Virus record (IMG/VR): IMGVR_UViG_3300005662_000008
Coordinates: 1-32,490 of that record
Direction: 5' to 3' (one strand)
Length of the DNA: 32,490 nucleotides
Source of the DNA: a virus
Taxonomy: Duplodnaviria > Caudoviricetes
Positions 3,975 through 24,942 of the stretch are shown here, one piece after another (positions within the stretch are counted from its first letter, which is position 1; each line of letters opens with the position of its first letter). Under the pieces are notes generated by a model. That model was not told where the DNA came from. It ran no database searches and saw only the letters and a list, made by a program, of their open reading frames with translations. The position numbers and the translations under genes are program-made.

Positions 3975-4096
3975 AAGAGTCCCGGAACTCTTCTGCAAGA
4001 GTTTGAACTCCTCTTGCAAGAGTTTTCACTCTTCTGCAAGAGTCAAAACTCTTCGTGCAAGAGTTTGAACTCTTATTTAAGAGGTTCTGAACTCTT
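3975..4096. repeat. Phased AAGAGT/ACTCTT array A
   Basis: Alternating hexamers starting at 3975, 3987, 3997, 4007*, 4018, 4028, 4038, 4048, 4059, 4069, 4079*, 4091 (* one mismatch). Confidence 0.92.
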
Positions 4097-4661
4097 ATGC
4101 AGGGTTGGTCACGACGATACTTCCAGTGCCCGTCAAGCCGTCAAACGGCCAATCCGGGTCAGCTGGGTCGGTGCTAGGTGTGACCGCAATCGGGAAGGCC
4201 ACCTCGTCAGCGGTAATCTCCAGCGTGTAACCATGGAGGTCGGTCCGTGCCGTTCCAATGGACATCTGAGCGGTCTTCACCACACAGCCGTTCACCGCAC
4301 CCATCATCCACAGCTGGTCATTCGCATCGAGCACCCAGCAGAACACCCGCCCTTGAATCAGGATTTGGAGCTGGTTGTTGTCGGTTTGAGTGGCCTTGTG
4401 GAGCGTTACCGATGCCTTAGCCATGTAAGCGGCGCTTCCCGCGTCCTCGTTCGTCACGTCACACACGAGGCCGCTCGTGTTCGGGCGAACGTCATAGCGG
4501 TACATGGTGTAGTTCACAGCCCCGTAAGCGGTCCACGTGCCCGACGTGAACACCATAGCCGAGTATGCGAGCGGGTTGAAGTCGGCAAGGTAGATGGCTT
4601 TTACGCCGCCCACCTTGTCCTTACAGGCCAACCCGCGTGCTGAGGTTAGTGAGCAAGGCAT
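4095..4661 (-). CDS. Putative major tail (tube) protein
   Basis: 188 aa right after the capsid gene; N-terminus MPCSLTSARGLACKDKVGGVKAIY and C-terminal GTARTDLHGYTLEIT are typical of this structural family in Bacteroidota phages. Confidence 0.6.
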   Translation of the reverse strand: MPCSLTSARGLACKDKVGGVKAIYLADFNPLAYSAMVFTSGTWTAYGAVNYTMYRYDVRPNTSGLVCDVTNEDAGSAAYMAKASVTLHKATQTDNNQLQILIQGRVFCWVLDANDQLWMMGAVNGCVVKTAQMSIGTARTDLHGYTLEITADEVAFPIAVTPSTDPADPDWPFDGLTGTGSIVVTNPA

Positions 4662-4663
4662 GA

Positions 4664-5644
4664 TTAGGTGAAGTCAAATCCGACAACCCCGTCGGTTGGG
4701 ACGGCCACCTGAATGCCGCACGCAAAGTTCATGTTGATGACCACGTCGTCCTTACCATCGTACTGGTAACGCGGGATGAGCTTCGCCTCCGTTTGCGGCG
4801 TGTACGCGTTAGTTCCAACCACGAGGTTCTCCGGGTAGGTGGCTACCATAACGTCTACCGTGTTCGGGATGCCGATGGTCGGGTAGATGGGGTAACCCAT
4901 GTAGGTAACCGCGTTGAACGCTTGGTTGGTACCCAACAGGTTCACACCCTGATTGCTACCTGACGTGGCGAGCGCCTGCAAGTAGAAGCCATACGCCTCG
5001 TACGAGCAGTAGAAGCCAAATCCGGGCTTCATAGCCACCGCTGGGTTAGCCATCACCTTGTCATAGACGGTAGCGAAGACGGTCAGGATGTTGCTATTGG
5101 ACCATGCCGTGTTGCCCGTGTCGGCCTCAGTGAAGTCAGCACAAGCAGAGGCGTCGATGCCCGCCTCGTCAATCACCCCGTCGTTAGACAGGAAGCCGAG
5201 GCCCCACACAGCACCTGAATCGCCGCGCCACAACAGGGTCTCCAGCTGCTCACCCGCTTTGGCCGCTACCAGCGACACGAGGAAGTCGGTGAACTCCACA
5301 GGGATGTCCCCGTCACGGCGCATCTTGCCTTGTGCGGCTACCCACGTTGGGAAGACGGTCTTCCGGCAGACCTCTTCATAGACCTGAAGTTCGTTCAGGG
5401 TGAGGACCTGCTCAGACAGCGTCAGCACGTTAGCGCTCGCGGGCGTGCACGAGGCGGCCTGAATCGGGTTGGTGCTAACCACGTTGTTGATGACCGCCTT
5501 GCGCGTGATGCCCTCGATAAGGCGGCAGCGGTTCTTGGCGATGGTCTCGGCTGCGTTGATGGCAGCGGTAACGTACGGCAGCGCTAAGTCACCGGCATAG
5601 GTGTTAGCGGATACCGTAAGGTCGAAGTCATACTTCCGGCTCAT
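4664..5644 (-). CDS. Major capsid protein
   Basis: Likely start MSRKYDF at 5644, just after the scaffold stop; ~326 aa; follows protease and scaffold; TYAGDLALPYV, LSEQVLTLNELQV and QLETLLWRGD motifs. Confidence 0.8.
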   Translation of the reverse strand: MSRKYDFDLTVSANTYAGDLALPYVTAAINAAETIAKNRCRLIEGITRKAVINNVVSTNPIQAASCTPASANVLTLSEQVLTLNELQVYEEVCRKTVFPTWVAAQGKMRRDGDIPVEFTDFLVSLVAAKAGEQLETLLWRGDSGAVWGLGFLSNDGVIDEAGIDASACADFTEADTGNTAWSNSNILTVFATVYDKVMANPAVAMKPGFGFYCSYEAYGFYLQALATSGSNQGVNLLGTNQAFNAVTYMGYPIYPTIGIPNTVDVMVATYPENLVVGTNAYTPQTEAKLIPRYQYDGKDDVVINMNFACGIQVAVPTDGVVGFDFT

Positions 5645-5646
5645 AG

Positions 5647-6264
5647 TCAGTAGTGTTTTACTTGATTGATGTGATGCAATGCGGTCTCCCATGCGGAGCT
5701 GAATACCTGCGGCTGCGACTTGGTGGCCTGCTTAGCCGGGGTGTGCTTAACGCCAGCGGTAGCGGGTTGGTTTTCGAGCGCCTCGATACGGCTCATGAGG
5801 GTCTTGAGGTGCTTGGCGGTCTGCGCTGCCATCTCAGTGATGGCCTCGTTCATGGCCTCAACCTCTCCCTCCGGTGCCTCAGGCTTTAGCGCTTGGATAA
5901 TCTCTACGACCTTCTCTACCAAGTCATCTTCGAGGCCAATCTCCGCCAGCTTCTTACGCATGTCGCCGTACTCGTCGCCCATCTCCTCCTTGTCCTTGCC
6001 CGCCTCGACGACCGGGGCCTCCTCTCCGAGCTGGGCGATACGCCCTCCAGCTACAACGAGCTTAGTGCCGTCCTCCAGCATGTACTCGCCATCCGGAACT
6101 ACCTCCGCTTGCCCCTCCTCGTTCATCACGAACACCTCTACACCGATGTCCATCGCTTCGGCTTCGGTGACGACCAGCCGCCCATCGTCCATCCGCGCCT
6201 CCGCGTAGAACTTGTGGACAGTGCCCAGCTTGAGCAGGTCTCTGATTTTGTCGATTGTACGCAT
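5647..6264 (-). CDS. Capsid scaffolding protein
   Basis: Acidic and coiled-coil; VPDGEYMLEDGTKLVV motif; between protease and capsid genes. Confidence 0.7.
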   Translation of the reverse strand: MRTIDKIRDLLKLGTVHKFYAEARMDDGRLVVTEAEAMDIGVEVFVMNEEGQAEVVPDGEYMLEDGTKLVVAGGRIAQLGEEAPVVEAGKDKEEMGDEYGDMRKKLAEIGLEDDLVEKVVEIIQALKPEAPEGEVEAMNEAITEMAAQTAKHLKTLMSRIEALENQPATAGVKHTPAKQATKSQPQVFSSAWETALHHINQVKHY

Positions 6265-6296
6265 ACCTATTGGGTTTATGGGTTAATATGGATTCT

Positions 6297-7079
6297 CTAG
6301 GGCTGTTTCTTTTTGGGGTCTAGGCCGCCCGCTGGGGCAAACATACGCACCCCGGCCACGTCTACCGGGTCGGCACCCACCGCGCTCATGAACAGCTGAG
6401 CGTACAGGTCCGCCTCGCGTGACGCGCGAAAGAGGGGCACGCCGTTGATGGTAAGGACCGGGGTCAGCTCCTCCATAACGAGCGCCTTCAGCTGCTCCAT
6501 CACCGCCGGGTCCTTGGGGCAGTCCTTGCAGGGCTGTGCGAGGTCGATGGCCTTGGCGCTAACCACTTGGTCCACGAAGTAGCCCTCTATGCTGAACCCA
6601 CGGACCTTATCGTCCTTGACCTGATTCCATACCGCCTCGTTGTTGACCTTAACGGACAGCATCCACGTGCCCTCCGGTAGCTTGAACCCGTACAGCGCCG
6701 CCTTGTCGCGTGTGGTGTCTTCGATTAGCCATGACTCCACTACGGTGAGGTCGCTCACTGGCACCTCGTGCTCGTACGTGTGCTGGTTCGTGCGCTCCTC
6801 CTTCATGTACCGTTCAGCCGCCTTGCGGATGGTGTCGGATGTGAAGTACACCTCATACTGCTCACCCGTGAATTCGTCAATCCTGAGGATGCGCTTATCG
6901 GGGATGAGGGCTGGGCCTATGAGCAACCGCCGCTCCTCCTCCAGTGCCGCGAACACGTACTGAGCGTCCGCGCTGAGGTACACGAAATTGGTCTCGATGG
7001 CTGGGAACTTGACTAGGCTGACAGCTTGGATTCCAGCCAGCTCTTCGTCATCGTCGATGAGTAATTCTACCAGTTTCAT
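6297..7079 (-). CDS. Prohead serine protease (XkdF-like)
   Basis: AVSLVKFPAIE, LIGPALIPDKRI, VVESWLIED, LPEGTWM and VRGFSIEGYF motifs. Confidence 0.85.
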   Translation of the reverse strand: MKLVELLIDDDEELAGIQAVSLVKFPAIETNFVYLSADAQYVFAALEEERRLLIGPALIPDKRILRIDEFTGEQYEVYFTSDTIRKAAERYMKEERTNQHTYEHEVPVSDLTVVESWLIEDTTRDKAALYGFKLPEGTWMLSVKVNNEAVWNQVKDDKVRGFSIEGYFVDQVVSAKAIDLAQPCKDCPKDPAVMEQLKALVMEELTPVLTINGVPLFRASREADLYAQLFMSAVGADPVDVAGVRMFAPAGGLDPKKKQP

Positions 7080-7091
7080 GCGTGGTGGGAG

Positions 7092-7200
7092 TTTGCCGTT
7101 TGAGATAGATTTTCTGCCCTCTCTTGCCCTTTCCTTGTTTCTCTAGGCGCGTGGCTATTGACTTGTCTAATCGTTGAATCCATAGGTTCTATAGGCGTTC
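7092..7200. repeat. Non-coding element family 2, copy 1
   Basis: Colinear with 30548-30656: TTTGCCGTTTGAG-N5-TTTTCTGCC...GTTTCTCTAGG...GG.TATT...TTCT.TAGGCGTT. Confidence 0.75.
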
Positions 7201-7217
7201 CGGAAGGGTTGTGAGCG

Positions 7218-9041
7218 TTACTGCAAGATAGACCGATGCGCTAGTTGAGCGTCAATCTGCTGCTGTGTCGTGACCTCATTCGACACCACATACGCCTTGA
7301 TGGGGGTGGGTTCGGTGAGGACGTTCGGCATGGGTGCGGTGGCTGACTGAGCGAAGCTGTTTGGCACCATCGCCTGTGTCATGGTGGGTGGGGTGATGCT
7401 ACCGGTCGACCCCGCGCCGCTGTCAGGGAACTTCTGCTTGGCGATGGTAGCTATCTGCGTGGCACCTGTGATGGCCGCTGTGATGGCCCCCGGAATGCCC
7501 GCTGGGTAACCCAAGCCCACGGGAGGGGCCGCCAGTGCCGCAATGACCGCTTGTGCCGTGCTCATCACCGCCGCTGCCGTCTGAATGCCCTTGGCCCGCT
7601 GGAACGCCTTGCGTTGGGCCTCTATGTCGTCGCTGTCTGACTTGTCATTGAGCACCTGAAGGAAGCTGGCGAACGACTGCGCCATAGCCATGTAGGTGTT
7701 CATGGTGGCAATGCGCTTAGCCACCTTGTCATCCTCGCTCTTCGCCTCATCCTTCACGCTCTTTTTCCGGTACTCTTCCTCGATGGCCGCTAGCTCTTGC
7801 TTCTGCTTCTCCAGTAGTTCAGCCTCACCATGCCCGAACTCGTCAGCTAGGGCGAACAGGGTCTCGTACTTCTTGACCACTGCCGCTATCTCGCGCTCGT
7901 GCGCGGACATAACACCCTCGGCAAGCGCGTCCATCCGCTCGTACTGAGCATCGAGGGCCTCCTGCTCTGCCAGCGCCGCCTCTATGGCGATGGCTGCGGC
8001 CTCTGCGCGCATGGCATTGAGCTTGTTTTGCAGTTCGGTCTGCTTCCCGGCTGACTCCTCGCGCACGTTCAGCAACTCTACCTCTAGCTGGGTCAGCCTC
8101 TCGTAGTCCGCCTCCGTAGCTTCAGTGAGCTTCATGTTGGCCTCTTGAATCCGGACCTCCTCAGCCGCTAACGCCACCCTGCGGTTAAGCAGGCTCTGCT
8201 CCATCTCTACGGCCTTCTTAGCCGCCTCCATCCGCTCCTCCAGTGGCTTGGTGCTGTCCTCCGCCACGAGGTTGTACTCTTGAATCTCCGCGCGCCCTCG
8301 TGCGAAGGCCACCGCTAGGTCACGCTGCGCCTTACGCAAGTCGATGCTGTCCTTAGCCAGCTGGGCGGCTGCCTTAGCGGCACGCGTGATAGCCGGGGCC
8401 ATCTCGACCACCTCCTCAACCAACAGGGCCACCCCCGCCGTTAGCGGGTTCAGGTGGATGGCTGCATCGCCAATCTTCTTAGCCCCCTCGATAGCCGCGT
8501 CCTTGGCCTTAGCGAACTCACCAGCGAACACGTGCCCTATCGCGTCACCTAGCAGACCGAAGCCGTCGATAAGCTTCTGCACTTGGTCCATCACGTACTG
8601 CTTCAACGTAGCGTAGAAGTCCATGATAGCCTGCTTGGGGTTCTTGAACGCGTTAATGAGCGCCTCCCCGAAGGCAGAAACCTTGTCTACGATGACCCCG
8701 AATGCTACCCCGAGGGCTGCGGTGGCCGTCTCCAGCATCTCAGCGCCGCGCTGGGTCTTGGTGAAGTACGCTACGAGGGACCCCACCGCCACTACGAGCG
8801 CCCCGATACCCGTCGACACCATAGCCGCCTTCAGGGACTTGAACCCAGTGCCCGCTGCCTTTAGCCCGTCCTTGATGCCCTTGAATGCCGTAATCATCCC
8901 CCCGGTCATCCGGTCTAGAGCGCCGCTCATCCCGGCTGCCGCCTCGTTGGTTTCCTTGGCGGCCTCGCCAACTCCGGCTACCTCGTCGGCTGCCTTCTTG
9001 GCTCCCTTGACCTTGATGTTAACGTCTATTTCGGTGCTCAT
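7218..9041 (-). CDS. Tape measure protein
   Basis: 607 aa, Ala-rich helical; KAAMVSTGIGALVVAVGSL repeat-type motif; coiled-coil middle; C-terminal PIKAYVVSNEVT. Confidence 0.75.
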   Translation of the reverse strand: MSTEIDVNIKVKGAKKAADEVAGVGEAAKETNEAAAGMSGALDRMTGGMITAFKGIKDGLKAAGTGFKSLKAAMVSTGIGALVVAVGSLVAYFTKTQRGAEMLETATAALGVAFGVIVDKVSAFGEALINAFKNPKQAIMDFYATLKQYVMDQVQKLIDGFGLLGDAIGHVFAGEFAKAKDAAIEGAKKIGDAAIHLNPLTAGVALLVEEVVEMAPAITRAAKAAAQLAKDSIDLRKAQRDLAVAFARGRAEIQEYNLVAEDSTKPLEERMEAAKKAVEMEQSLLNRRVALAAEEVRIQEANMKLTEATEADYERLTQLEVELLNVREESAGKQTELQNKLNAMRAEAAAIAIEAALAEQEALDAQYERMDALAEGVMSAHEREIAAVVKKYETLFALADEFGHGEAELLEKQKQELAAIEEEYRKKSVKDEAKSEDDKVAKRIATMNTYMAMAQSFASFLQVLNDKSDSDDIEAQRKAFQRAKGIQTAAAVMSTAQAVIAALAAPPVGLGYPAGIPGAITAAITGATQIATIAKQKFPDSGAGSTGSITPPTMTQAMVPNSFAQSATAPMPNVLTEPTPIKAYVVSNEVTTQQQIDAQLAHRSILQ

Positions 9042-12200: not shown

Positions 12201-12242
12201 GGGAACCTCCCCCGCCTGCGTGTAAGCTACCAGCTGAATCAT
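9210..12242 (-). CDS. Large tail/baseplate hub-like protein
   Basis: 1010 aa; N-terminal YSGAFTLPFSAKNNVFF and GYLQLRSV; FLRELVERFNLVV; position in tail module. Confidence 0.7.
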   Translation of the reverse strand: MIQLVAYTQAGEVPVNLDLGDETSVRLNFAFADPGAPLTRQAPYSGAFTLPFSAKNNVFFGHWYSVNLVSGTFAADVRTRAEVRSEGMIVTEGYLQLRSVSLTAETYEVSVLGTTGELFNKLADATLSEVLTAMSPIGLDDYDYAPTAANVIDSWDTTNDITNGSVGAGVVVVPLADYGNTPGGRLFYDFGVPDGLNSANYLQPYHLKPAMQVKHIIEKCFEYAGMTLSSTFLTTSPMTDLYLLLSTASKELATRPYYGSRVGLTSGVTVTSGNQAQITGWTASGAGNYDPDAHMTTYGFTAPADMTALFEVSLCCTNYAATSVGYVRLVKGGTVAAVAPFMVNASGDAVTPVVVLTAEVSLLQGEYLEVYVGSAFSTGNIVIAATPNTYFKFISYSSSSAGAIVAPLDGLPQVKAAEFLRELVERFNLVVVTDSEDERVVRIEPMMDYLLTGEERDWSGLVNRDGPMVLSPLTDLRKKRLRFTDGVDNDYLNQYHQANFGMALGDYGFTAADEFAQGDLTTPTLCGSTALYPVTTSNVTTSVHLTQVSIPTYYGATDTGEAEAVSTKPKLLFYNELKTIVNPIYVGATSVTEYPHFSPFTDRVIGASTWSLYWRHTFSYSTLVVGEQFAQGLYDRFWAQYLTDLYDPAARMLDCEVVLSAADVRNLSFADVIRIDNETYRVVSLADYNPDDTGVARARLLKTLTNVKLTAPGRPCELVLTATNANGSTTWETPAGSAATPTADCCEAAGYYWDGTTCWWSRPTTGGGGTNPASDFLRSGEHFRPPRSMPGSAGPIRIPVRRTTASEIASMPNGIFPYADGRDVYLTSNTSGFSLGAHQRYLLCATTSGRTIEVASPRGVLDSGGAGAGVMVLRDNITTHIRARLVGVDVASYSGTGIGEYQFIEKLFVVQCDNAVVRIREDHTPAHHHSGGRVQSEVGIRAAVGTDVVAGANTVEITIDGKDANRVTSWLIDVDLTLIDTTAAEAFLDSILHEDSAPLSMENNSIIITE

Positions 12243-13615
12243 CGGTTGCGGCGATACTTAGCGTACTGAACGCTGATGGAGTATTTGAACAGGCGGTCAT
12301 TCAGGGCCGTCTTAAGCGTGAATGAGGTGTCTTTAACGCTGACCCTAGTCCAAGCCCCGACAGCGTCAGGACGGGCAAGAAACACGGCATCTGAGGCAAA
12401 CAAGGACTCCAACAGGGCCGCGTCAGCGTCACTCACCCAGTCCGTGGTGAGGTTGGCGGTACGGTAACCGGTCGATTTGAAGGTGGTTTTACCGCCCTCT
12501 ACGTCGCTGAAGGGTTGGAAGTCCTGAGCACGCTGCCACGTACCCGCGTCCTTGTAGTAGCTGGACTGCGTGACCTCGTTGCTGTACTCCCTCCGCTTGG
12601 TGAAGTTGAAGTAGTCCCAGCCTCCAGCCCGGTTAATCCACCCGAGGGTCACAGGCGCCCCGTTGTAGCAGTCCAAGTCCACTACCTCAGTAACGAGGTT
12701 GTAGCTGCACGCGACATTGCTAGCGTCAAACAGGCGCATCTCGTAGCGCGTGACATAGCCAGCGGTGATGAGGGAGTGCAGGCCGCTGTCCCCGTTCAGG
12801 ATGAAGCTACCCGGTGCCGTGATGGCTACGGCGGTCATCTGCTCGTTTGTGGTTACGGACGTAGCGGCAACCCCTACCATACTGCTCAGAGTGATTGTCT
12901 CAGTCACCTGCACGTTGGTGTCCGTGCGGTAGTAGCTTGTCTTGAGGGTTCGCGCCGTGCTCCCGAGCGAGCGCCCTGTGCCCGTGTTAGCGGCGTACCA
13001 AAAGCAGTGGACGCGGTAGTCCTGCTTCGTGCAGCGCTGCTTGAGCACTACGCCGCCAAGCTGGGTAGTTTCCGTAATCGGCGTAATCTCCGTAAGCCAC
13101 CCCACCCCGGTAGTGGCCCCTGCGGTTACGCACCGCCATGAAGCCGTGGCTACTCCCTTCAGGGTCACCCCCCTCCATCGCGCGTCGCCCTCGTCGCCCG
13201 CGAACCACACCGCGTTCACCTTGACGTTAGTATGGTCGTAGGTGGTGGTTGGTGGGGTAAGCATGTCGGGGGCCTCTGCGCTGCCCAAGTCCACCTGAAA
13301 CAACCCGGCTGGGGCGTACCCTAGGCTGGTCAGCGTGACCCTCTCATCGGCGTACTCCGGGGCCGCAGCGGCATTGAGCACGAGCGGGTGGTTGAGGTAG
13401 TCGCGGATGACCCGCTGGAGGTCGAAAATACCGTCATCGACCGCGTTAGGCGGGCACCTGAGGATGACGAGCACGTTACCCGCCCCGTCCTTGACGCGGC
13501 ACACGTACCTGAACTTGGGGGCTGAGACGCTGGGGGCGGACAGCCGGAACACCACAGGCCCGAATGCGCTTACGGGGGTGTTGGTTAGGGGCTGCTCTTC
13601 TATGGTTACGGCCAT
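12239..13615 (-). CDS. Tail protein (distal-tail-like)
   Basis: 458 aa; WINRAGGWDYFNF and LTTDWVSDADAALLESLFAS motifs; tail module. Confidence 0.6.
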   Translation of the reverse strand: MAVTIEEQPLTNTPVSAFGPVVFRLSAPSVSAPKFRYVCRVKDGAGNVLVILRCPPNAVDDGIFDLQRVIRDYLNHPLVLNAAAAPEYADERVTLTSLGYAPAGLFQVDLGSAEAPDMLTPPTTTYDHTNVKVNAVWFAGDEGDARWRGVTLKGVATASWRCVTAGATTGVGWLTEITPITETTQLGGVVLKQRCTKQDYRVHCFWYAANTGTGRSLGSTARTLKTSYYRTDTNVQVTETITLSSMVGVAATSVTTNEQMTAVAITAPGSFILNGDSGLHSLITAGYVTRYEMRLFDASNVACSYNLVTEVVDLDCYNGAPVTLGWINRAGGWDYFNFTKRREYSNEVTQSSYYKDAGTWQRAQDFQPFSDVEGGKTTFKSTGYRTANLTTDWVSDADAALLESLFASDAVFLARPDAVGAWTRVSVKDTSFTLKTALNDRLFKYSISVQYAKYRRNR

Positions 13616-13635
13616 GATTTCGGGGTGGTTTTTGC

Positions 13636-13789
13636 AGGAGTTTGAGAAGAGTGCGAAACTCTTACCGAAGAGTTTTCACTCTTGCAATAAGAGTGCAGAA
13701 CTCTTGCAGGCGCTAGTTCTCTACTCACCGAAGAGTTCGGAACTCTTGCAAGAAGAGTTTGCACTCTTGCATAAGAGTATGCACAGAGT
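13636..13789. repeat. Phased AAGAGT/ACTCTT array B (dyad-symmetric about ~13718)
   Basis: Hexamers at 13636*, 13647, 13658, 13668, 13678, 13689, 13700, [25-bp core], 13731, 13742, 13753, 13763, 13773, 13784*. Confidence 0.92.
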
Positions 13790-13792
13790 AGG

Positions 13793-14389
13793 TTATTCAC
13801 CGGATTTCTCGTTAGCGGATTGCATGATGGCCTCAGTGAGGTCCTCCACGTAAGCTATGGCTATCTCACCAGCGTACTTCTTCTCGATTCGGGCGCCTGT
13901 GTCCGTGATGAAGTGGCTAGGCTTGAGGCCGCGCCTGCGGATGGACTGGGCGATGAGCATGGCGAGGGTGTCGTGGCTCATGGCCTTGAAGCGCCCGCCC
14001 TCCCCACGCGGCTTGATGCCTCGCTCGCGCATCCACGTGCGTATGACCGCGACCGGAGGGGCCTTGTCCCTGAACTGGAAGGGAGGCCCGCCTGTGGGGT
14101 TCTCCCCCTGACGAGGCCCGAAGGGGCTGCTCACTGCGCCCCTTACGCCGCTATCGACGAATATCCAGTAGTGGACCTTGGGGGTGAGGTTGACCATCGG
14201 GTTGCCGTCCGGGTCTAACATCAGCTCCGGCGTCATGCTCCTAGTGAGAGCGCCGCTGGCGTTGCGGTCGTCACGCCTGAGCTTCCCCTGCGCGTTACGC
14301 TTCCACAGGAGCGCAAGCCGCATAAGGACCGCGCTGGTCCGGGTGAGGGTTATTTCAATCCCCTCTACGGTAGTGACGAGAACCTCCAC
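13793..14389 (-). CDS. Putative neck/tail-completion protein (HK97 gp10-like)
   Basis: Basic 198 aa; ASGALTRS, YWIFVDSGVRG and IAQSIRRRGLKPSHF motifs; GTG start. Confidence 0.55.
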   Translation of the reverse strand: MEVLVTTVEGIEITLTRTSAVLMRLALLWKRNAQGKLRRDDRNASGALTRSMTPELMLDPDGNPMVNLTPKVHYWIFVDSGVRGAVSSPFGPRQGENPTGGPPFQFRDKAPPVAVIRTWMRERGIKPRGEGGRFKAMSHDTLAMLIAQSIRRRGLKPSHFITDTGARIEKKYAGEIAIAYVEDLTEAIMQSANEKSGE

Positions 14390-14395
14390 TAGACA

Positions 14396-16710: not shown

Positions 16711-16715
16711 CCGTC

Positions 16716-17360
16716 TCAGGCATTTTGAGCTAGCGCCTTTGAACGATTAGGCCCGTTCCACACCAGCCCTACCCTATGGTCAGGATTGCGCCATCTGCAC
16801 GCTAGCAAATCATTTGCGCTGGCGTTGACGTATCCGGCTGCTTCGAGGGCCTCCACGGAGTCGAATATCCGCGCGTGGCGGTCCTTGGTGAGGTCCACGA
16901 GGTCATCGCGGGTGCCCCCTAAGCTAAACACCACGCTGAGGTTGTCCGGTATGTGGAGCACCTCCTTGAACAGCGGCACCGACTTGGTGTAGGTGTAGAA
17001 GCGAACGTGGGGGCTGTTCTCGATGACATGGAACCACTTGTCCCGGTACTCGCGGCTGTACCAGTCGCCCGCGTCATGCACACGAAGGTAGGTGGGCTTG
17101 CGCTCCTGAATCTCCTTGAGCATCAGGGTAGGGAAGTCAGGCCGCAGGGTCGCCTCGTAACGCTTGCGGTAGACGGGTGCGACGTTGCTCCACAGGTAGG
17201 CCCCGCGCTTGGCGTAGCAGTACTGCTGGCAGGCTCCCGCGAACGGGCACGTGCGTTTGCCCTCAGGGGTCTCTAGGGCAGGGATGCCGAAGTTCATGAC
17301 GCGCTCCCCGGTCAGCTTGCTAGCGTGCCGCAGGGCGGAGTTTTGGCTAAGCAGTTTCAT
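16716..17360 (-). CDS. GP88-like protein (Cys-triad, radical-SAM-like)
   Basis: TCPFAGACQQYCYA, RVHDAGDWYS and FYTYTKS motifs match my recollection of the phage GP88 family. Confidence 0.7.
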   Translation of the reverse strand: MKLLSQNSALRHASKLTGERVMNFGIPALETPEGKRTCPFAGACQQYCYAKRGAYLWSNVAPVYRKRYEATLRPDFPTLMLKEIQERKPTYLRVHDAGDWYSREYRDKWFHVIENSPHVRFYTYTKSVPLFKEVLHIPDNLSVVFSLGGTRDDLVDLTKDRHARIFDSVEALEAAGYVNASANDLLACRWRNPDHRVGLVWNGPNRSKALAQNA

Positions 17361-17691
17361 CGAACCACGTGGGCTTAGTGAGCGGTTGACCAGCCGTGGT
17401 GATGTCGGTGGTCTCTACGTAGCCCCGCGCCTTGCCTTTGGTCTTCAGGTAGAAGATGGTGGCTGTGGCATTGCCCTCTTGGATGAGCTTGTGGAGGTTG
17501 CTCTCAGCGAAGTCCACGGCCACATCGGCCAGCTCCTTTACTGCGGACGCATACTCCGCATCCTCCCGTAGCCAGCGGTAGTGGGTATCGCGGCTCACAT
17601 TCACGGCCTTGCAGGCGGTCGTTACCACTCCTAGGCTCTGCTCTAGCGCCTTAAGCAGTTTCTCTTTTATTGTGTCTGATTTGTCAGGCAT
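17347..17691 (-). CDS. terS: Terminase small subunit (HTH-type)
   Basis: LGVVTTACKAVNVSRDTHYRWL helix-turn-helix; ATIFYLKTKGKARGYVE; upstream of TerL. Confidence 0.75.
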   Translation of the reverse strand: MPDKSDTIKEKLLKALEQSLGVVTTACKAVNVSRDTHYRWLREDAEYASAVKELADVAVDFAESNLHKLIQEGNATATIFYLKTKGKARGYVETTDITTAGQPLTKPTWFDETA

Positions 17692-18499
17692 CTAGGAACG
17701 CTTTTAGGGAGTAGACGATGAGGGAGTTGCGGTAGCCACCTTGCTCGTGGGGTTGGATGGGAGTGACCCCGTGGACGTTCCTCCACGCAGGGTAGACGAG
17801 CATGCTGTTGTCGGGTTGCTCGAAGGTAGCCCCGTAGTCGGGCACGTTTAGACACCCCCCTTGGCTGTTGGAGCGCTTAGTGTAGATGAAGTTCAGGCTA
17901 CCTACGATGTTGCCTGTGTCCACGTGGAACGGGGCTGCCGCGTTGTAGTTGCTGATGCTGGAGGTGAAGTGCTTGCCGAACCGCCACTTGTCATCCACCG
18001 GGGCGATGGCCTCCAGCTGTTGCTGATGCAGTTCAGGGCTGAGTTCCTCTAGCAGGGTCATCCCTAGTTGGCTGATGGCTATCATGGCCTTCACGAAGGT
18101 CTGCGCCTTGGGGTCGCGGTGGGTGCTTGCGTACCCCGGCTTGAGCCTGCGCACACGAGGGTTAGGCTTGATGCTCCCCAGTAGGGTGCTGTACTGCATG
18201 ACCCCTTCGCCTTGCTCGCCCAGCTCCTTGAGGGTACGCCCGGACTCTGTGGCAGCGGTGATGGCTTGGGTGCGGTGGAGGGTGGCTTTAGGGACCCGCT
18301 CGCTGCGGAACTCCTTGTTGGCCACGTCTAGGACGGCCCCCATCCGTACGTCATAGTCGTTCACGTTGCGCACGTACAGGCCTACGGGCTTCCCGTCCTC
18401 GACTAGGAGGCAGTCCTCGTGGATGTTGGGTTCAATGTACACACAGCGCTCACCCACCTTCACCTCGTGGGGCACCTTGGTCAACTCGAGTATTCGCAT
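17684..18499 (-). CDS. TET/JBP-family 2-oxoglutarate/Fe(II) dioxygenase
   Basis: FTSSISNYN-AAPF-HVD (HxD); GGCLNVPDY; distal HGVTPI...YRNSLIVY (H...RxS). Confidence 0.85.
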   Translation of the reverse strand: MRILELTKVPHEVKVGERCVYIEPNIHEDCLLVEDGKPVGLYVRNVNDYDVRMGAVLDVANKEFRSERVPKATLHRTQAITAATESGRTLKELGEQGEGVMQYSTLLGSIKPNPRVRRLKPGYASTHRDPKAQTFVKAMIAISQLGMTLLEELSPELHQQQLEAIAPVDDKWRFGKHFTSSISNYNAAAPFHVDTGNIVGSLNFIYTKRSNSQGGCLNVPDYGATFEQPDNSMLVYPAWRNVHGVTPIQPHEQGGYRNSLIVYSLKAFLDA

Positions 18500-19977
18500 C
18501 GGAGTAATTTGAGAGCGTTTAAAGCACTTTCGCTGGATTGAACTATGCGGTGACTAGGCAGATTGAGAACACGCGTAGAAATGGCCTTCAAATGCCTCTC
18601 TGACTGGTTGCTGCCCCTTGCTGCCCGGCCCTCCGCTCCGTCACCTGCGATTCGGATGACCACGGGGTCCGCCTTGGCGATGAACTTGCTGTTGGAGAAT
18701 CGGTCGCCCTCGAACACGGCTAGCTTCCGTGATTTCTTCACGTAGGCGAGGAACGGGTCTAGGTCGCGCATCACCGCCATAGACAGGCGGTCGCTGCCCT
18801 CAAAGGTGGTGCCATCGTACTTACCCACGACGATGAAGTCGTCCGTCTCCACCCAGTGCACCATGCCCATGCGGTACTTGCGCGCCTCGCTCGTGAGGAG
18901 CTGCTTCATCACCCACGTCTTCCCCACCCCGCAGTTGCCTGTGATGAGTACGCACTGCCTCAACCACGGCTTGCTGCTGACCTTGAATCCTTCTTCTTCC
19001 ATCATGATGACCTCTCCGGTTAGGCGGTAGTGATTCTGTTTCTCCGGGCATAGGCCCCGGTCTAGGAGGTTGTCCTCTAGACGCAGGTGCTTAGGCAGCG
19101 CCCACTTACGGGCCTCCCAAAATACGCTAAAGTCCTCCGTAGGGCATAGCTGCTCGGCCTTCCGGATGCGGTCATGGAACATGTCGTTGTAGACGTTCGG
19201 GTACCTCCGGTTTATCCGGTGCCATCCTTTGTAGCAGCACAGGGTGGTCTCTAGGGTGAAGTACGATACGTCCGGGTGACCTATCCGCTCGCGCGCCTCG
19301 AGCAGGAGGGCCTCCCCTTCCCGCTCCAGCCAGTCGAGGTGGGGTGTGTAGTCCACGCGGTCCTGCTTCCACCAGTCGAGGTCGTCACGCCCTAGGACCT
19401 TGCACAGCCCGTTGCGGTGGCTCTTGCTCCCTGAGATGTCGTCTAGGAACAGCTGGTCGCAATCGAGGGGGATACCCGCAATACGGAGGTATTCCAAGTA
19501 GCTGAAGGTAGACAGCCGCCCGAAGGTGAGGTACTGGTTAGACACCACGTCCCACACTGCCCTGAAATTAGCGTGTTCCGTCCCTACGCACAGGTCTCCG
19601 TAGAACGCGTATTGGGTCTTCCCGTTAAGCGCCGCTTGATAGCTCTCCACGGCCTCCACGAACCTCATCCGCGTGTACCTGCGGTCCGTATCGAACGGCA
19701 GCCGCTCGCGATGGTGGGTGAACCACGCCCGCAGGTCCTCGATGTCAGCTGGAGGGAGCGGGTACTCCTTCCAAATACGGTAGGTGGTCAGAGGGTGCTG
19801 GGTGCAGCCGTTGATGAACGTGAACCACAGCGCCTGCTCCTTGGTCATACCCAGCTCCTTGAACAGGTACGGGAAGACGTAGTACACCCCCCCGGCATGA
19901 GCGCGGTACTTGAGGTGGTACTCGTAGAAGCGGAGGAACGTCTCGCGCCTGTGCTCGTGTAGGCGGTAGTCCATCAC
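18481..19977 (-). CDS. Amino acid:DNA transferase (aGPT-Pplase2-like) fused to a C-terminal P-loop 5-hydroxymethylpyrimidine DNA kinase
   Basis: N-domain MDYRL..RRETF, FGRLSTFSYLEYL, DDISGSKSHRNGLC, ETTLCCYK; C-domain (from ~aa 340) ITGNCGVGKT, GKYDGTTFEGSDRLS, FEGDRF. Confidence 0.82.
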   Translation of the reverse strand: MMDYRLHEHRRETFLRFYEYHLKYRAHAGGVYYVFPYLFKELGMTKEQALWFTFINGCTQHPLTTYRIWKEYPLPPADIEDLRAWFTHHRERLPFDTDRRYTRMRFVEAVESYQAALNGKTQYAFYGDLCVGTEHANFRAVWDVVSNQYLTFGRLSTFSYLEYLRIAGIPLDCDQLFLDDISGSKSHRNGLCKVLGRDDLDWWKQDRVDYTPHLDWLEREGEALLLEARERIGHPDVSYFTLETTLCCYKGWHRINRRYPNVYNDMFHDRIRKAEQLCPTEDFSVFWEARKWALPKHLRLEDNLLDRGLCPEKQNHYRLTGEVIMMEEEGFKVSSKPWLRQCVLITGNCGVGKTWVMKQLLTSEARKYRMGMVHWVETDDFIVVGKYDGTTFEGSDRLSMAVMRDLDPFLAYVKKSRKLAVFEGDRFSNSKFIAKADPVVIRIAGDGAEGRAARGSNQSERHLKAISTRVLNLPSHRIVQSSESALNALKLLRCEYSS

Positions 19978-20909
19978 ATCACGTCACTGCCTACAATCCA
20001 AAAGCAGGTAGTAGGGGTCAGGTACTCAGGCGCCCGCTCCTTGAGGTAGCGGATGCACTTGCCCTCGTAACGGGGGTGGAATCGGATGTCGCCGATGGCT
20101 TCACGCATCTCCTGCTGGTAGGTGCAGTACCCGGTGCCGTTCAGGTTCAGGTAAACCATGTCGTATTTCGCGTTCTCGCTAGCGAAATTGAAGTCAAAAT
20201 ACTCGTCCGTGTCAAGCCCTAGGTTCACCTCAACGACGGCACGGAGCCTCCTCCGAACGTACCCGATGTCATTGCTGCCCATGTTGCCGATGCCCATCAG
20301 CACGATGCGCTTCAACCCCGGCGGTGGGTACATCATGATGCCGTAGAGGATGCTCGTCACGCTGTTGCAGCTGCCGCACGGGATGATTAGGGTCTCCACG
20401 TCCTCCGGTATGTTCATCACCTGCCACGCGCCTACGCGGTGAAATCCCTCTATGTCCCTAAATGAGTTCTTCTCTAGGTCGAGGGTGATGTTGGTCTCTA
20501 GGTAGCGGAACCCCTCCCATGCGAGCGACGCCTTACGCGCCTGCGCCCCGCACGCCTGAGCGTACCCGACCCGGCTGGAGACGATGTGCGCTCCAAACTC
20601 GTGCGCCATGCGGAGGTACTTGTGCTCTAGCGGCTTGCGGACCCCGCTTACGATGTAGCAACCCACGTTGTAGTGGCGGCACGCTGCGGCTATGAACGCG
20701 TGCTGTGGACTTTGGCTGACGCTACCGCTAGCCACGCCCTTCAGGTTACCCTCGTCGTACCACTTGTCGACTAGGTAGATGCACTGCCGGAGCTTGCTTC
20801 CGTTGATGTTGCCGTACCCTAGCGGAGCGAACTTGTCGTCCCGCTTGAAGTACATGCCCCCGTGCCGTTCAACCGGGGTTAGGTCCCTCAGTTTTGACCC
20901 CCACGTCAT
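19974..20909 (-). CDS. PLP-dependent enzyme (fold II), putative DNA-adduct decarboxylase
   Basis: LTPVE...FKRDD...NGSKLRQ (PLP lysine); IPCGSCNS phosphate loop; FHPRYEGK; FWIVG. Confidence 0.82.
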   Translation of the reverse strand: MTWGSKLRDLTPVERHGGMYFKRDDKFAPLGYGNINGSKLRQCIYLVDKWYDEGNLKGVASGSVSQSPQHAFIAAACRHYNVGCYIVSGVRKPLEHKYLRMAHEFGAHIVSSRVGYAQACGAQARKASLAWEGFRYLETNITLDLEKNSFRDIEGFHRVGAWQVMNIPEDVETLIIPCGSCNSVTSILYGIMMYPPPGLKRIVLMGIGNMGSNDIGYVRRRLRAVVEVNLGLDTDEYFDFNFASENAKYDMVYLNLNGTGYCTYQQEMREAIGDIRFHPRYEGKCIRYLKERAPEYLTPTTCFWIVGSDVM

Positions 20910-21502
20910 TCGCCTAGCTCGTCTCGGAGCAGGGTGAGTAGCGCCATCCCCACATCGAAGTTGCGCCTGTTGGCTTCTTTCACTAACTCGTATGCCTCTT
21001 GAAAGAGGTCATTAGGGAAGTTGATGAGGATGCCCCGCTCGGTGCTCTCCGCTATCTTGGTTACGCGCTCGTCTATGCCGCTGAACTCGTCTGAATCCAA
21101 TACCGTGTAGTCCGCATCGACCTCCGGCACCCACACGTGTAGGCCCCAGTCGTTCAGCTGGACAGCGTCCCACGTGTTGCTGAGCATGTCCCAGTCCCAC
21201 TCCCCATAGCTGACGTTGTCCTTGACCACAAACTGCTTGCGCTGCTCCTCAGTCCAGCCCTCGGCTACGATGACAGGCACCTCTTTGAACTTCAGCTCCT
21301 CGAGCGCCTTCAACCGCATGTTGCCCCCTAGCGCCACGTGGTCCTCATCAACCACGATAGGTCGCTTCCACAACATCTCCGGGAACTCCTTTAGGGACTT
21401 GACCAGCTGGCGGTACTTCTCGTCCCGGATGACGCGCGGGTTGTCCGGGTTAGGCTTGATTTGGCTCAGGGGTAGGGTCTGAATCATCGCAGGTGTGTTC
21501 AT
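20906..21502 (-). CDS. ParB/Srx-like N-terminal domain protein
   Basis: IKPNPDNPRVI, RPIVVDED...GGNMRLKAL, FVVKDNVSYGEWD; no ParA nearby. Confidence 0.85.
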   Translation of the reverse strand: MNTPAMIQTLPLSQIKPNPDNPRVIRDEKYRQLVKSLKEFPEMLWKRPIVVDEDHVALGGNMRLKALEELKFKEVPVIVAEGWTEEQRKQFVVKDNVSYGEWDWDMLSNTWDAVQLNDWGLHVWVPEVDADYTVLDSDEFSGIDERVTKIAESTERGILINFPNDLFQEAYELVKEANRRNFDVGMALLTLLRDELGE

Positions 21503-21869
21503 AGATGGTTTTGAGTTCGTTCAGTACGCGTATCATGCACGAGGGGCAGCGCGTGTACTCCTGCCTCCTACCGGTGTACCGCTGGTAGAGGTCGATGGCT
21601 AGGTGCTGGGTTGCCGCTGTGATGGTGTCGTTGAGGGTGATGGCCGCTAGGTGCTGCTCGTAGATGCGCTTGTCTACGGGAGCGAAGGTGCGGTAGTACG
21701 GGAACAGGAGGTTGAGGGCGGTGCGCCGCTCGTCACACCCGCAGTCGCTACCGGCAATGGCCTTAACGACCGCCTTAACCCCGGTGGCGGTAGTGATGGC
21801 GTCGATGGTGTCACCTAGGCCCTTGGCCTTTCTGCGCCGCGTGGGTTTGCTTGATTGCGTCTCTGACAT
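21450..21869 (-). CDS. Conserved hypothetical protein with Cys motifs
   Basis: KGLGDTI...TGVKAVVK...DCGCDERR and CPSC. Confidence 0.7.
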   Translation of the reverse strand: MSETQSSKPTRRRKAKGLGDTIDAITTATGVKAVVKAIAGSDCGCDERRTALNLLFPYYRTFAPVDKRIYEQHLAAITLNDTITAATQHLAIDLYQRYTGRRQEYTRCPSCMIRVLNELKTIYEHTCDDSDPTPEPNQA

Positions 21870-22350
21870 GCTTGATGGCCTTATAGATAGTAGTTCGGCT
21901 GATTCCGGTCTCCTTGGCGAGGGTGTTTAGGGAGTGTCCGTGAGCAACATACACCATAAACACCATCCGCTCAAAATAGGGGTACCGCTCCAACTGCTTC
22001 TCTACAAAGTTACACAGCGCCTCTCTACGTTCCCACTCGCCATCGTCGGGTGTGCTCCACTCCTCTATCTCGTAAGCGGCCGCTCGGTGGCGTTCAACCT
22101 GCTTGCGGTACTTGTAGTGCCATGGGCTGGTCTTGCTGTTGTACTGGTTCATCATGATGCGTGCTATCCAGTACCGCATCTGACCTCGTTCAATCAGGCC
22201 CACCATCCGACCCCGGTCACTCTCGTACAGGATGACCATCACCTCGTGTGCGAGGTCGTCTGCGTCGTGGCGGTTACCCCGCGTGACGGCAACCGCCATC
22301 TTGACGATGGCATCGTAGTTCGAGGTGACGTATTTGTCCAGTGGGTCCAC
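21811..22350 (-). CDS. ECF-type sigma-70-like factor (probable late/middle gene activator)
   Basis: Region 2-like DADDLAHEV...YWIARIMMN; region 4 HTH SLNTLAKETGISRTTIYKAI; start uncertain (GTG 22350 or ATG 22425). Confidence 0.75.
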   Translation of the reverse strand: MDPLDKYVTSNYDAIVKMAVAVTRGNRHDADDLAHEVMVILYESDRGRMVGLIERGQMRYWIARIMMNQYNSKTSPWHYKYRKQVERHRAAAYEIEEWSTPDDGEWERREALCNFVEKQLERYPYFERMVFMVYVAHGHSLNTLAKETGISRTTIYKAIKHVRDAIKQTHAAQKGQGPR

Positions 22351-22453
22351 GTAGAGAAGTATTAAAACAGGCCCTTTGTGGTGGTCAAAAAATGGCCTCG
22401 GAACGCGTTGATTCTCATAGAACAAGCACTTCTCAAGAAGAATAGCCGAGCGG

Positions 22454-22927
22454 TTACTCCGAGCTAGATGATTGATTCTTGCCTAGAGAAAATGCCTCTC
22501 CGTTACTCTCTAGTTCACGGACTTTCGCCCTGAATTCAGCTATCATCGTCTCTAGGTCGTGGGTGCTGAATCGAGCGCTTTGGTTACTCCTCACCTGAAC
22601 CGCCCATGCCGTGCCGGGGCCGTACTTGCGGTCCAAGTTCAACCCAAACTGGTACTGGTGACCTGCGTTGGTGAGGTTGCAGTGCTTACACTGCGGCTTG
22701 ACGTTGAGCGGGTCCCAGCGTGTGGCGTACTTGGCCCTCGTTTGGAAGTGGCCCGCGTCCATCTCCTTCCAGTGCTTCACGGCACCACAGGTCCAGCACT
22801 GCTGGCGTCCAAACGAGTCAGCCCCCGACAGCCGCACCCATTGACTGAATGCGGTATCGAGGGCTGCTACTAGTTTGCTGCGGCTTACTTGTCGTCGCTT
22901 GGGGAGTCGGGCTTGAAGGTGGGCCAT
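22454..22927 (-). CDS. ninG: NinG/Rap-like endonuclease
   Basis: LDTAFSQWVRL, CWTCG, DAGHF, TRWDPLNVKPQCKHCN. Confidence 0.85.
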   Translation of the reverse strand: MAHLQARLPKRRQVSRSKLVAALDTAFSQWVRLSGADSFGRQQCWTCGAVKHWKEMDAGHFQTRAKYATRWDPLNVKPQCKHCNLTNAGHQYQFGLNLDRKYGPGTAWAVQVRSNQSARFSTHDLETMIAEFRAKVRELESNGEAFSLGKNQSSSSE

Positions 22928-23508
22928 ATACCTATCTCTTTGAGTTCAGCGTCGCTGAGGGTGATAGGCTCAAACTTAGGCCTTAACTCGCTAACCCGCT
23001 TCAGGTTTGGGTCCGGGGCCACGCGATGCATGCGCTCGAGCACGTCCGCCCGGTACTCGCCCTCGTACGCGCGGAACGCGTCCATGAGTTCGCGGGTGCG
23101 GAAGGTCCCGAACAGCTTAGGCAGGAGCTTGCCCCGCCGGATGAGGTCGCACACTACGCACACCTCCTCCATCTTCAGCGCTGGGAACTCCGCTAGGAGC
23201 GCATCGCACGCTGTGATGAGGTCGTCTGCATCCTGAAGGGTGTTAGTGGCGCCTACGTCCTTGACGAGCCTGCCGATTTGCAGGGCCAACCACGCCCGCA
23301 TAGTGGACGGGTCCACCTTAACCGCCCGCGCTAACGAGGTGCCTCCCTGCCACGCGCTCGTGGGTGTGAGTTCCCGCCGCACAGCGGAGGCTGCCTCACC
23401 CCCCGCCAGTAGCCCAGTCGCGGAGGGTGTCAACATCGAAGCCAGCTCCGGGGAGGCCCCCCTTGTGCTTAGCTGGTTTGTCAACTGGGAAAATACCTTG
23501 GTATCCAT
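22885..23508 (-). CDS. Hypothetical protein, possible helicase-loader/replication accessory
   Basis: 207 aa directly downstream of and overlapping the initiator; function inferred from position only. Confidence 0.5.
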   Translation of the reverse strand: MDTKVFSQLTNQLSTRGASPELASMLTPSATGLLAGGEAASAVRRELTPTSAWQGGTSLARAVKVDPSTMRAWLALQIGRLVKDVGATNTLQDADDLITACDALLAEFPALKMEEVCVVCDLIRRGKLLPKLFGTFRTRELMDAFRAYEGEYRADVLERMHRVAPDPNLKRVSELRPKFEPITLSDAELKEIGIWPTFKPDSPSDDK

Positions 23509-24154
23509 TGGCTATAGAGTTTTGAATCATGGCGATGGCGACGCGCACATCGCCGCCGCTCTCTAGTTGTAGCTTGTGGAGGGCTGCTTGCTCCCCCCGC
23601 TCCGTGTACGCGCGGATGTTGCGCTCCCGGCGGTCCTTCTTCCACTCGGACCACAAGGCTGCAAACCCATCATCATCCCACGGGAGTTGAACTTGGTTTT
23701 TTACTGGTTCTTCTATTGTGTTTCTTACTTGGTATTGGTTTGGTCGTTCGCCAAAATGCATTTGGTCGTTTGCCAAAATGGATTTCGGCGTTTGACCAAA
23801 TGGATTTGGTGATTCGCCAAATTGGGGCAGCGCTAGGTCGTAGATAGCCCCCACCGGGGCTGTGATGGTGTACCACTTCGTCCGGTCCATACCCATGCGG
23901 TTGAACTGGGACACCTCTATGGCCGAATCCTTCTCTAGGTTCCTGAGCACCCTACGTATCTGCTCAGCCGTCCAGTAGGGGAAGAACACGCTAAAGGCCC
24001 GTGCGCTGTTGTATGTCCACACCCGACCCTCGTGGAGGTTGAGTCCGTTCGCTTGGTTGTAGACCACCCAGTAGACGAGGTGATGGAGCATGATTGCCCC
24101 ATCGACCCCGTACCGCTGAGCAGCTACAGCGTTGAAATAAACGTCTCGCCTCAT
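23396..24154 (-). CDS. Replication initiator protein (lambda O-like organisation)
   Basis: N-terminal wHTH-type YGVDGAIMLHHLVYW...WTYNS...FPYWTAEQIRR; internal iterons; C-terminal WSEWKKDR...SIANGYQGIF. Confidence 0.8.
   Translation of the reverse strand: MRRDVYFNAVAAQRYGVDGAIMLHHLVYWVVYNQANGLNLHEGRVWTYNSARAFSVFFPYWTAEQIRRVLRNLEKDSAIEVSQFNRMGMDRTKWYTITAPVGAIYDLALPQFGESPNPFGQTPKSILANDQMHFGERPNQYQVRNTIEEPVKNQVQLPWDDDGFAALWSEWKKDRRERNIRAYTERGEQAALHKLQLESGGDVRVAIAMIQNSIANGYQGIFPVDKPAKHKGGLPGAGFDVDTLRDWATGGG
23739..23826. repeat. Four 22-bp iterons; probable replication origin
   Basis: TTTGGTCGTTCGCCAAAATGCA / TTTGGTCGTTTGCCAAAATGGA / TTTCGGCGTTTGACCAAATGGA / TTTGGTGATTCGCCAAATTGGG, with an AT-rich tract next to them at ~23690-23738. 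Confidence 0.85.
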
Positions 24155-24378
24155 TTGAGTGGCCTCTCCGGTAACGAATAGTGATGCCTTAGGACAACGT
24201 CTACCACTTCGGTAATCGTTACTCTCCCGGTACCGGAGATGGCTTTCGTGTGCTTGAGCATGGGCAGCGGGTTGCGCTGAACCCAGTTGGTTACCGTCAT
24301 AGCGGATACCCCAAGCTGCTCGGCCATCCTCGCCTGCGTGCCATACACGCTCCTAATCATTAGCTTAAGGTCGCTCAT
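24151..24378 (-). CDS. Cro/XRE-like HTH protein
   Basis: TQARMAEQLGVSAMTVTNWV; likely start MSDLKL at 24378. Confidence 0.75.
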   Translation of the reverse strand: MSDLKLMIRSVYGTQARMAEQLGVSAMTVTNWVQRNPLPMLKHTKAISGTGRVTITEVVDVVLRHHYSLPERPLK

Positions 24379-24805
24379 CGCTCGGCGGGATTGCAGCCAA
24401 CGCGTCACGCATCCGGAGCAGCGTGCGGGCTTGGTTCATCAACGTGGCTTCGCTATCGACCGGAGTGCCAGCGGCCATGTTCCACTGAATGGCCTGACCC
24501 AAGGCCCATGACGCGTCTATGCGCGCCTGAAGGTTTGGGTCTGACGCTCTCGCGCCCCCGCCCCCGAACCCGCCTCGCGGCGCGTTAGGGTCCTGCTTGC
24601 TGAGCTTGAGCCGGGGTGTGCCCCGGAACTCGCCAGTGACCTCGTACCACACGGTATCCCCCTCCTTCCATGGTGGGGGCTGGGTCTTTGAGGAGGCTTC
24701 ACCCTCCACCCCGTCTGCGAATGCGACGGAGTATTTGAACATGCGTCCGTACTGGCCATCGTAGTGGCCCATTCCCTGTACTTGGGTAATTGTGGTCTGT
24801 GTCAT
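24365..24805 (-). CDS. Putative single-stranded DNA-binding (OB-fold-like) protein
   Basis: Likely start MTQTT at 24805; beta-rich N-domain, Gly-rich linker (PRGGFGGGG) and helical tail; upstream of the initiator. Confidence 0.45.
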   Translation of the reverse strand: MTQTTITQVQGMGHYDGQYGRMFKYSVAFADGVEGEASSKTQPPPWKEGDTVWYEVTGEFRGTPRLKLSKQDPNAPRGGFGGGGARASDPNLQARIDASWALGQAIQWNMAAGTPVDSEATLMNQARTLLRMRDALAAIPPSDERP

Positions 24806-24844
24806 TGCTATGACTGATTTTAGGTGTTTAACAAAGGTTTCAAT

Positions 24845-24942
24845 ACTCTTCTGCAAGAGTTTTGCATCTTCTCACAAGAGTTTCAAACTCTTGCAACGCT
24901 AGGTTTCTATTCACGGAACTCTTGCAAACTCTTGCAGCGAGT
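24845..24942. repeat. Phased AAGAGT/ACTCTT array C
   Basis: Hexamers at 24845, 24855, 24865*, 24876, 24887, [25-bp core similar to array B], 24918, 24928, 24937* (* degenerate). Confidence 0.88.

Follow-up and report, generated by a model that had tools for sequence, protein, structure and literature searches.

Baculovirus homologous regions (hr) are eukaryotic enhancers and origins built from longer units, and the pac hexamers of phage P1 and the dispersed centromeres of phage N15 are essential and paired with known phage proteins. At the parH site of TP228, according to the accessible part of its report, the ribbon-helix-helix protein ParG coats an array of tetramer boxes about 100 bp long (PMC3130281). 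Repetitive extragenic palindromic (REP) sequences are defined, in the available portions of two reports, as palindromes of 20–40 bp with a GTAG or CGTC foot (PMC3733652, PMC6006769), and GCTAG-footed repeats are listed there for subclass 2.6 of the Bacteroidetes (PMC6006769). Repeats of 5–6 nt in one orientation lie, in the available text of a preprint, beside TwoAYGGAY RNAs (bioRxiv 10.64898/2026.09.22.753630). Here we analyse three arrays of the hexamer AAGAGT and its complement ACTCTT in the virus record IMGVR_UViG_3300005662_000008 (Duplodnaviria; Caudoviricetes). The window, which is the whole 32,490-nt stretch, is a complete circular phage record of 32,390 bp whose ends share a 100-bp overlap (direct repeats, 100% complete), and every annotated gene lies on the minus strand. 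The three arrays are late, optional insertions at gene junctions, confined to the window's species, and we tentatively read them as docking or decoy sites for a DNA-binding protein.

Like baculovirus hr, the arrays are several dispersed intergenic palindrome arrays around a circular viral genome that differ between relatives; unlike hr, they occur in a genome whose lambda-O-like initiator is separate and carries four 22-bp repeats (23739–23826). They share with P1 pac and the N15 centromeres short words phased or dispersed around a phage genome, but are absent from relatives that retain the same terminase genes. As far as the available text of the parH report goes, the likeness to parH lies in an array of about 100–150 bp of short boxes with variable spacers, suited to cooperative coating, and in the parH box ACTC, which is the start of ACTCTT; the phage arrays differ in alternating strictly at 10.5 bp, in being strain-optional and dispersed in three copies, and in belonging to a lytic-looking phage without a ParA/ParF motor and with no binder gene adjoining the arrays (PMC3130281). 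No ParA, ParM or TubZ was found among 46 open reading frames (ORFs) in PHROGs and 33 Pfam scans. A partition centromere is a weak reading: neither a cognate binder nor an NTPase motor was found, the closest complete relative (G001) keeps the candidate partner genes without an array, and a close strain (L205) lacks array 3. Like REPs and bacterial interspersed mosaic elements (BIMEs), as the accessible portions of the reports describe them, the arrays are short palindromes after gene ends with inverted neighbours, a mosaic of units and linkers, and presence or absence by strain; unlike them, they have no GTAG or CGTC foot, very short A/T-rich stems (6–7 bp) and three loci only (PMC3733652, PMC6006769). 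The layout also differs from that of the repeats beside TwoAYGGAY RNAs, as seen in the available text (bioRxiv 10.64898/2026.09.22.753630). A CRISPR or TIGR-type guide array was rejected (linkers of only 4–6 nt, no cas or tas gene annotated, no Rfam match), as were origin iterons, since the iteron-like 22-bp repeats lie elsewhere; CRISPR and origin iterons had already been excluded in an earlier sequence-only reading of this DNA. A literature search, with most subscription journals outside its reach, found no description of such an element.

Exact AAGAGT occurs 29 times on the two strands of the genome, against 10.5 ± 3.8 in 100 shuffles (maximum 20). The three arrays hold 27 of these copies (10, 11 and 6), with isolated ones at 7772 and 8276, and no other hexamer exceeds four copies per 160 bp in the genome, apart from words that overlap the arrays; the clustering reported by the sequence-only reading is thereby borne out genome-wide. 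Array 1 (3972..4096) comprises six palindromic units with 10 exact and two one-mismatch hexamers, and starts where the gene that follows the major capsid gene has its stop codon, ahead of a hairpin that probably ends the operon. Array 2 (13619..13792), with 11 exact and two one-mismatch hexamers and a 25-nt insert, occupies the junction of genes 13793–14389 and 12239–13615 and has an A-rich leader for the downstream gene at its end. Array 3 (24840..24933, edges ± 2 nt) is a 94-nt insertion close to the 3′ end of gene 24911–25273, to which it supplies a new TGA.

Hexamer starts lie 10–12 bp apart; where the gaps are longer (21, 22 and 31 bp), they take in a shared insert or degenerate copies. 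At 10.5 bp, arrays 1, 2 and 3 have a phase coherence of 0.93, 0.97 and 0.98, with a best period of 10.4–10.55 bp, and the phasing is significant against random non-overlapping placement (p < 1/20,000 for arrays 1 and 2, 0.00015 for array 3), in agreement with the one-turn spacing first proposed. The companion statement that these are not simple tandem repeats needs correcting for array 1 and part of array 2: Tandem Repeats Finder reports degenerate tandem repeats in both, with a 20/21-bp unit, 5.7 copies, 77% matches and a score of 128 for array 1. Around the circle the arcs between arrays measure 9,677, 11,181 and 11,532 bp, which confirms a rough division into thirds; this evenness is matched by 145 of 15,180 gene-junction triples (about 1%, post hoc).

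The arrays are palindromic in both registers, AAGAGT-N4-6-ACTCTT and ACTCTT-N4-5-AAGAGT. Linkers from ACTCTT to AAGAGT always measure 4–5 nt and frequently contain TGCA; the 2-nt length needed for a perfect palindrome does not occur. Their polarity in this register is opposite in array 1 and array 2. A logo of 34 half-sites, exact ones and degenerate ones together, has the consensus base at each hexamer position in 31–33, a T after the hexamer in 22 and TGC before it in many. Arrays 2 and 3 have a homologous segment in common (13700..13754, minus strand, and about 24874–24934). It runs the same way relative to transcription at both places, has 46 invariant columns and contains the insert that creates each array's 31-bp gap. 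Rather than identical copies, the three arrays are mosaics of shared pieces.

The relatives examined are the best 80 of 323 viral and the best 80 of 222 metagenome capsid relatives, with duplicates removed. At site 1 the array is absent in 62 of 62 distinct non-self rows, which have a hairpin and short leader there; at site 2 the flanking genes abut or overlap without an array in all 17 distinct relative rows; and at site 3 it is absent in 8 of 8. A screen of 1.40 Mb of relatives' loci (the same best 80 of 323 and best 80 of 222 with a few later additions) for phased arrays in which any one hexamer alternates in orientation responded only to the window's species, and G001 (33 kb) has no such array of AAGAGT or of any other hexamer. 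Within the species, strain L205 is 97–98% identical over about 14 kb and lacks array 3: its gene at site 3 reads through and overlaps the start of the next gene, whereas in the window the gene ends at a new stop, with 94 additional bases and a diverged remnant. These empty or overlapping junctions, together with L205, establish the arrays as late and optional, missing from at least one close strain. Since so similar a strain does without array 3, the three-way layout is not required. Array 1 is present with one substitution in L041, X9 and X11, array 2 is unchanged in L032, and run X13 departs from the window at 3945 with a different site-1 allele (30 of its 161 letters seen). Array copy number is unchanged in the same-species copies seen. 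The sequence-only reading had held that absence from relatives would count against it; the result goes partly that way, the arrays being absent from the relatives of other species examined and array 3 from L205, with arrays 1 and 2 present and conserved in same-species strains.

Array 1 differs from its copy in L041 at 1 of 123 positions, against 12.5% at four-fold sites, and array 2 from that in L032 at 0 of 157, against 8.2%; no run of equally many four-fold sites has fewer than five differences. The linkers alone differ at 1 of 69 and 0 of 91 positions, so that the 'free linkers' of the sequence-only reading vary within an array and are conserved between strains. X9 and X11 carry the same single change in array 1, which restores the consensus, and differences in their flanks begin 8 and 19 nt away. 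Where present, the arrays are under constraint, of whatever kind, conserved like other intergenic DNA and far above four-fold sites.

Beyond this species no true array was found in IMG/VR, GTDB, cultured phages or plasmids. A scan of IMG/VR for three hexamers gave 38 loci, six from the same species and 32 with only 3–4 half-sites; 14 of the 17 weak loci that were checked lie within ORFs. A relaxed GAGT/ACTC scan of IMG/VR gave eight loci, namely four from the same species, two copies of one chance-like match and two unrelated tandem palindromes. The last two (L216:1990-2050 and L221:4995-5070) are in unrelated low-GC viral contigs that have their own tandem palindromes around a GAGT/ACTC core. 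Searches with blastn of cultured phages and plasmids returned chance-level matches only. The search of relatives and bacterial genomes that had been proposed recovers the arrays in the same species, and in no other relative examined or, by the strict pattern, GTDB genome.

We tentatively favour a reading in which the arrays are optional stretches of duplex DNA that dock, or act as decoys for, a DNA-binding protein with sequence specificity, probably one of the host's. Such a protein would bind cooperatively along one helix face of the duplex. Read-out of the duplex in the major groove seems favoured over recognition of one RNA fold, because the half-sites are invariant, the loops vary, polarity is mixed and the identical stems would mis-pair in RNA. 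A multi-site protein array, as the sequence-only reading proposed, still appears the best reading; its versions based on the ParB-like, terminase, helix-turn-helix (HTH) or modification proteins as centromere, loading site or operator are weakened because G001 keeps the orthologues without any array (ParB-like 57%, small terminase subunit TerS 78%, Cro-like HTH 43%, TET/JBP 61%, ADDT 73%, and also sigma). The arrays might, more weakly, be a decoy or sink for a host silencing or defence protein, because genes under-use AANNGT while the arrays pile it up, as if scattered sites were costly. Among 2,048 gapped dinucleotide pairs, AANNGT, a pattern that AAGAGT matches, shows the strongest depletion in the phage genes (42 observed, 99 expected from per-gene codon shuffles, z −6.4); one hexamer holds three gapped pairs, and the chance of a match to the top-depleted pair is about 3 in 1,000, post hoc. 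Observed over expected counts are 33/94 in the window, 7/31 in L205 and 12/41 in L041 (0.23–0.35), against 0.50–1.09 in 15 other relatives.

The possible decoy survives with this soft signal and does not extend to restriction sites. Outside the arrays the genome has zero GATC (against about 220–250 expected), CCWGG, AGACT and CCAGA and zero of 14 hexamers, among them CCCGGG, CCGCGG, CTGCAG and GAGCTC; CAGNCTG, CACNGTG and CCCNGGG are also absent. Even though the phage has a modification cluster of its own, these zero counts suggest that its host possesses many restriction systems. The arrays contain none of the 18 zero-count 4–6-mers, and no zero-count bipartite motif is enriched there beyond multiple testing; arrays as restriction-site decoys were rejected on these grounds. 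In coding DNA, A-N3-T and A-N4-T are depleted (0.87–0.88, z −6 to −8) and A-N2-T and A-N5-T are not, which is possibly tied to base modification.

Phage counter-defence usually consists of proteins and sometimes of RNAs. Carried further, the docking or decoy reading would give a gene-free form of it, in which the word of a host protein is purged from the genes, dozens of phased copies are held in three optional DNA sponges spaced for early delivery, and a small SH3-like protein is possibly a partner; this extended version we regard as unlikely. Its early-delivery element is speculative: with headful, circularly permuted packaging, an assumption based on the Terminase_3 and Sf6-like TerS genes, arrays about 11 kb apart could place one copy in the first third of the injected molecule. 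If true, a cis-acting DNA decoy that varies between strains would be of a kind missed by gene-centred screens, and the array would lend itself as bait for isolating the host protein; its range so far is one phage species.

Several results weigh against a protein-docking role. No binding protein for the arrays was found, and the strict four-hexamer pattern has no match in 185,579 GTDB genomes, so no host copy is in evidence. The 10.5-bp phasing can derive from the 21-bp tandem unit, given the tandem structure of array 1, and the two 31-bp gaps stem from one shared insert and are not independent. Other intergenic DNA diverges by 2.2% and 1.4% in the same comparisons, the same as the arrays, so that a protein site is not singled out. 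AAGAGT itself is no more than mildly under-represented outside the arrays (2 observed, 4.8 expected, z −1.4); AANNTT is about as depleted as AANNGT and AANNNT nearly so, avoidance of AACNGT contributes, and the signal may be a general compositional effect or summed restriction-site avoidance. Transcription units contain all three arrays, two of which start at a stop codon, a placement that RNA or REP elements fit equally well. Folding is stronger than in shuffles for all six array strands (z −3.5 to −6.7), which any palindrome array would show, and a contig from an RNA library covers 3966–4180, and with it array 1, without differences while leaving 3400–3960 uncovered, although contigs show neither strand nor ends and DNA may be present in an RNA library.

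The transcribed placement bears on two rival explanations, of which a REP/BIME-like origin, with mosaic palindromes placed by a host HUH enzyme of the TnpA-REP type or by inter-locus copying and kept for a mild effect on mRNA, seems somewhat unlikely. The arrays are extragenic and downstream of genes, with inverted neighbours. They lie behind gene ends where both neighbouring genes point the same way, their stems are constant and their loops variable, and they are present in some strains and absent from others; all of this agrees with the accessible description of such elements (PMC3733652), as does their make-up as a mosaic of shared pieces. At sites 2 and 3 the insertion is flanked by the AA and the TC/CC of a YAATC-like junction, and its last bases are GAAA (n = 2, one a distant comparison). 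The insert shared by arrays 2 and 3 ends in one CTAGCG, directly before a CAAGA stem, which resembles, by eye, the GCTAG-footed repeats of subclass 2.6 in the available listing (PMC6006769), a likeness that is unscored and perhaps due to chance. A true GTAG or CGTC foot is missing from the 6–7-bp, A/T-rich stems, the three arrays are not identical copies, a term search of the REP table in the available supplements gives no AAGAGT (PMC6006769), no TnpA-REP (REP-associated tyrosine transposase, RAYT) gene is among the annotated phage ORFs, and neither GTDB, by the strict pattern, nor plasmids nor cultured phages yield a copy. Such an origin is compatible with a later function of the arrays; if it applies, host-type palindromic elements colonise the phage and are kept by selection. 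The degenerate 21-bp tandem structure, the dispensability of array 3 in L205 and the restriction to one species would also suit a neutral by-product of template switching and tandem slippage, which we consider very improbable, as arrays 1 and 2 diverge far less than four-fold sites, the same word and a shared segment recur at three distant loci, and copy number is unchanged in the same-species copies seen.

If the transcripts themselves were the functional form, the arrays would be mRNA hairpin stretches that stabilise the message, undergo processing, or sequester a host defence protein that binds or cuts RNA. All three junctions are transcribed, array 1 lies in the putative 3′ untranslated region of the capsid operon, where the RNA-library contig stops at 3966, the sense strand has six 4-nt loops of which three are GNRA, the segment common to arrays 2 and 3 holds its orientation to transcription, and linkers are conserved between strains. 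This is distinctly unlikely in view of the identical stems, which show no compensatory change, the opposite linker polarity of arrays 1 and 2, and minimum-energy folds that are alternative long-range pairings with an ensemble frequency of at most 0.05 on both strands and no dominant fold; Rfam gives no match at gathering threshold over the window and none at E up to 1 over array 2. A further alternative invokes a phage partner. Over 14.3 kb the only two large indels between L205 and the window are array 3 and an orphan early gene (29288..29518, minus strand; both absent in L205) for a 76-aa protein predicted to form an SH3-like barrel, and L041 has array 1 and this gene. It is the only phage gene whose presence matches the arrays, in two informative strains that cover different arrays. 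In a two-part phage system its product could coat the evenly spaced arrays and so help in organising, protecting or segregating the genome, consistent with the joint absence in L205, the confinement of both gene and arrays to the window's species and the even spacing (p ~0.01). We judge this improbable: two strains covering different arrays are too few to call linkage, the gene lies between repeated leader words in an early region where cassettes come and go, no ParA, ParM or TubZ motor is among the annotated genes, and the single-sequence fold is poor (predicted local distance difference test, pLDDT, 47.7). Structure-atlas leads for the protein are SH3-like (DsrB 0.92; DUF1918, template-modelling score (TM) 0.60), and no real homologue was found among 5.8 billion or 1.84 billion proteins, the two matches being short ones to repeat proteins.

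Strain L212 also lacks gene 29288–29518, and its sequence spans no array site. This same-species strain (L212:1-2700) is only about 75% identical in its portal-side DNA and is likely a recombinant in the structural module.

The hairpin after array 1 (3933..3960, minus strand) is a putative terminator of the capsid operon; relatives have a hairpin and T-run there, and a consensus terminator scan did not call the window's hairpin on the minus strand. After site 1 in relatives (e.g. L045 and L121) a TATAT-like word comes next after the hairpin and T-run and precedes the start codon by about 10 nt, a position that suggests near-leaderless late transcripts across the window's phage family.

The window phage carries genes for portal, capsid, tape measure, Terminase_3 and the Sf6-like small subunit, together with sigma-like, NinG, lambda-O-like initiator, Cro-like HTH and ArdC genes. 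A modification cluster (TET/JBP-ADDT-PLP-ParB_N) at 16716–21502 comprises GP88, TET/JBP, ADDT fused to a P-loop kinase-like domain, a pyridoxal-phosphate (PLP) enzyme and ParB_N, the ParB-like protein matching only the N-terminal ParB domain in Pfam. With no C5 methyltransferase annotated in it, the cluster looks like a pathway of post-replicative base hypermodification; it is common to G001 and mostly absent from G005. From the capsid match to Nonlabens phages, the only cultured phages matched (23%), and the best plasmid matches of ArdC, which are to Hymenobacter, we infer a Bacteroidota host. By record, the sequencing runs that match the window come from metagenomes labelled freshwater, aquatic or 'fungus'. 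Scanning GTDB with a capsid profile yielded a single contig, placed in a Parvibaculum bin, and no clue to the host; this 27.9-kb contig (L206) has a capsid gene of the window's family (38%) and is probably mis-binned. The four 22-bp direct repeats at 23739–23826 lie inside the lambda-O-like initiator gene and are likely origin iterons. Two pairs of related intergenic segments, 7092–7147 with 30548–30603 (75%, direct) and 22402–22449 with 30607–30654 (71%, inverted), are perhaps late-promoter or regulator sites.

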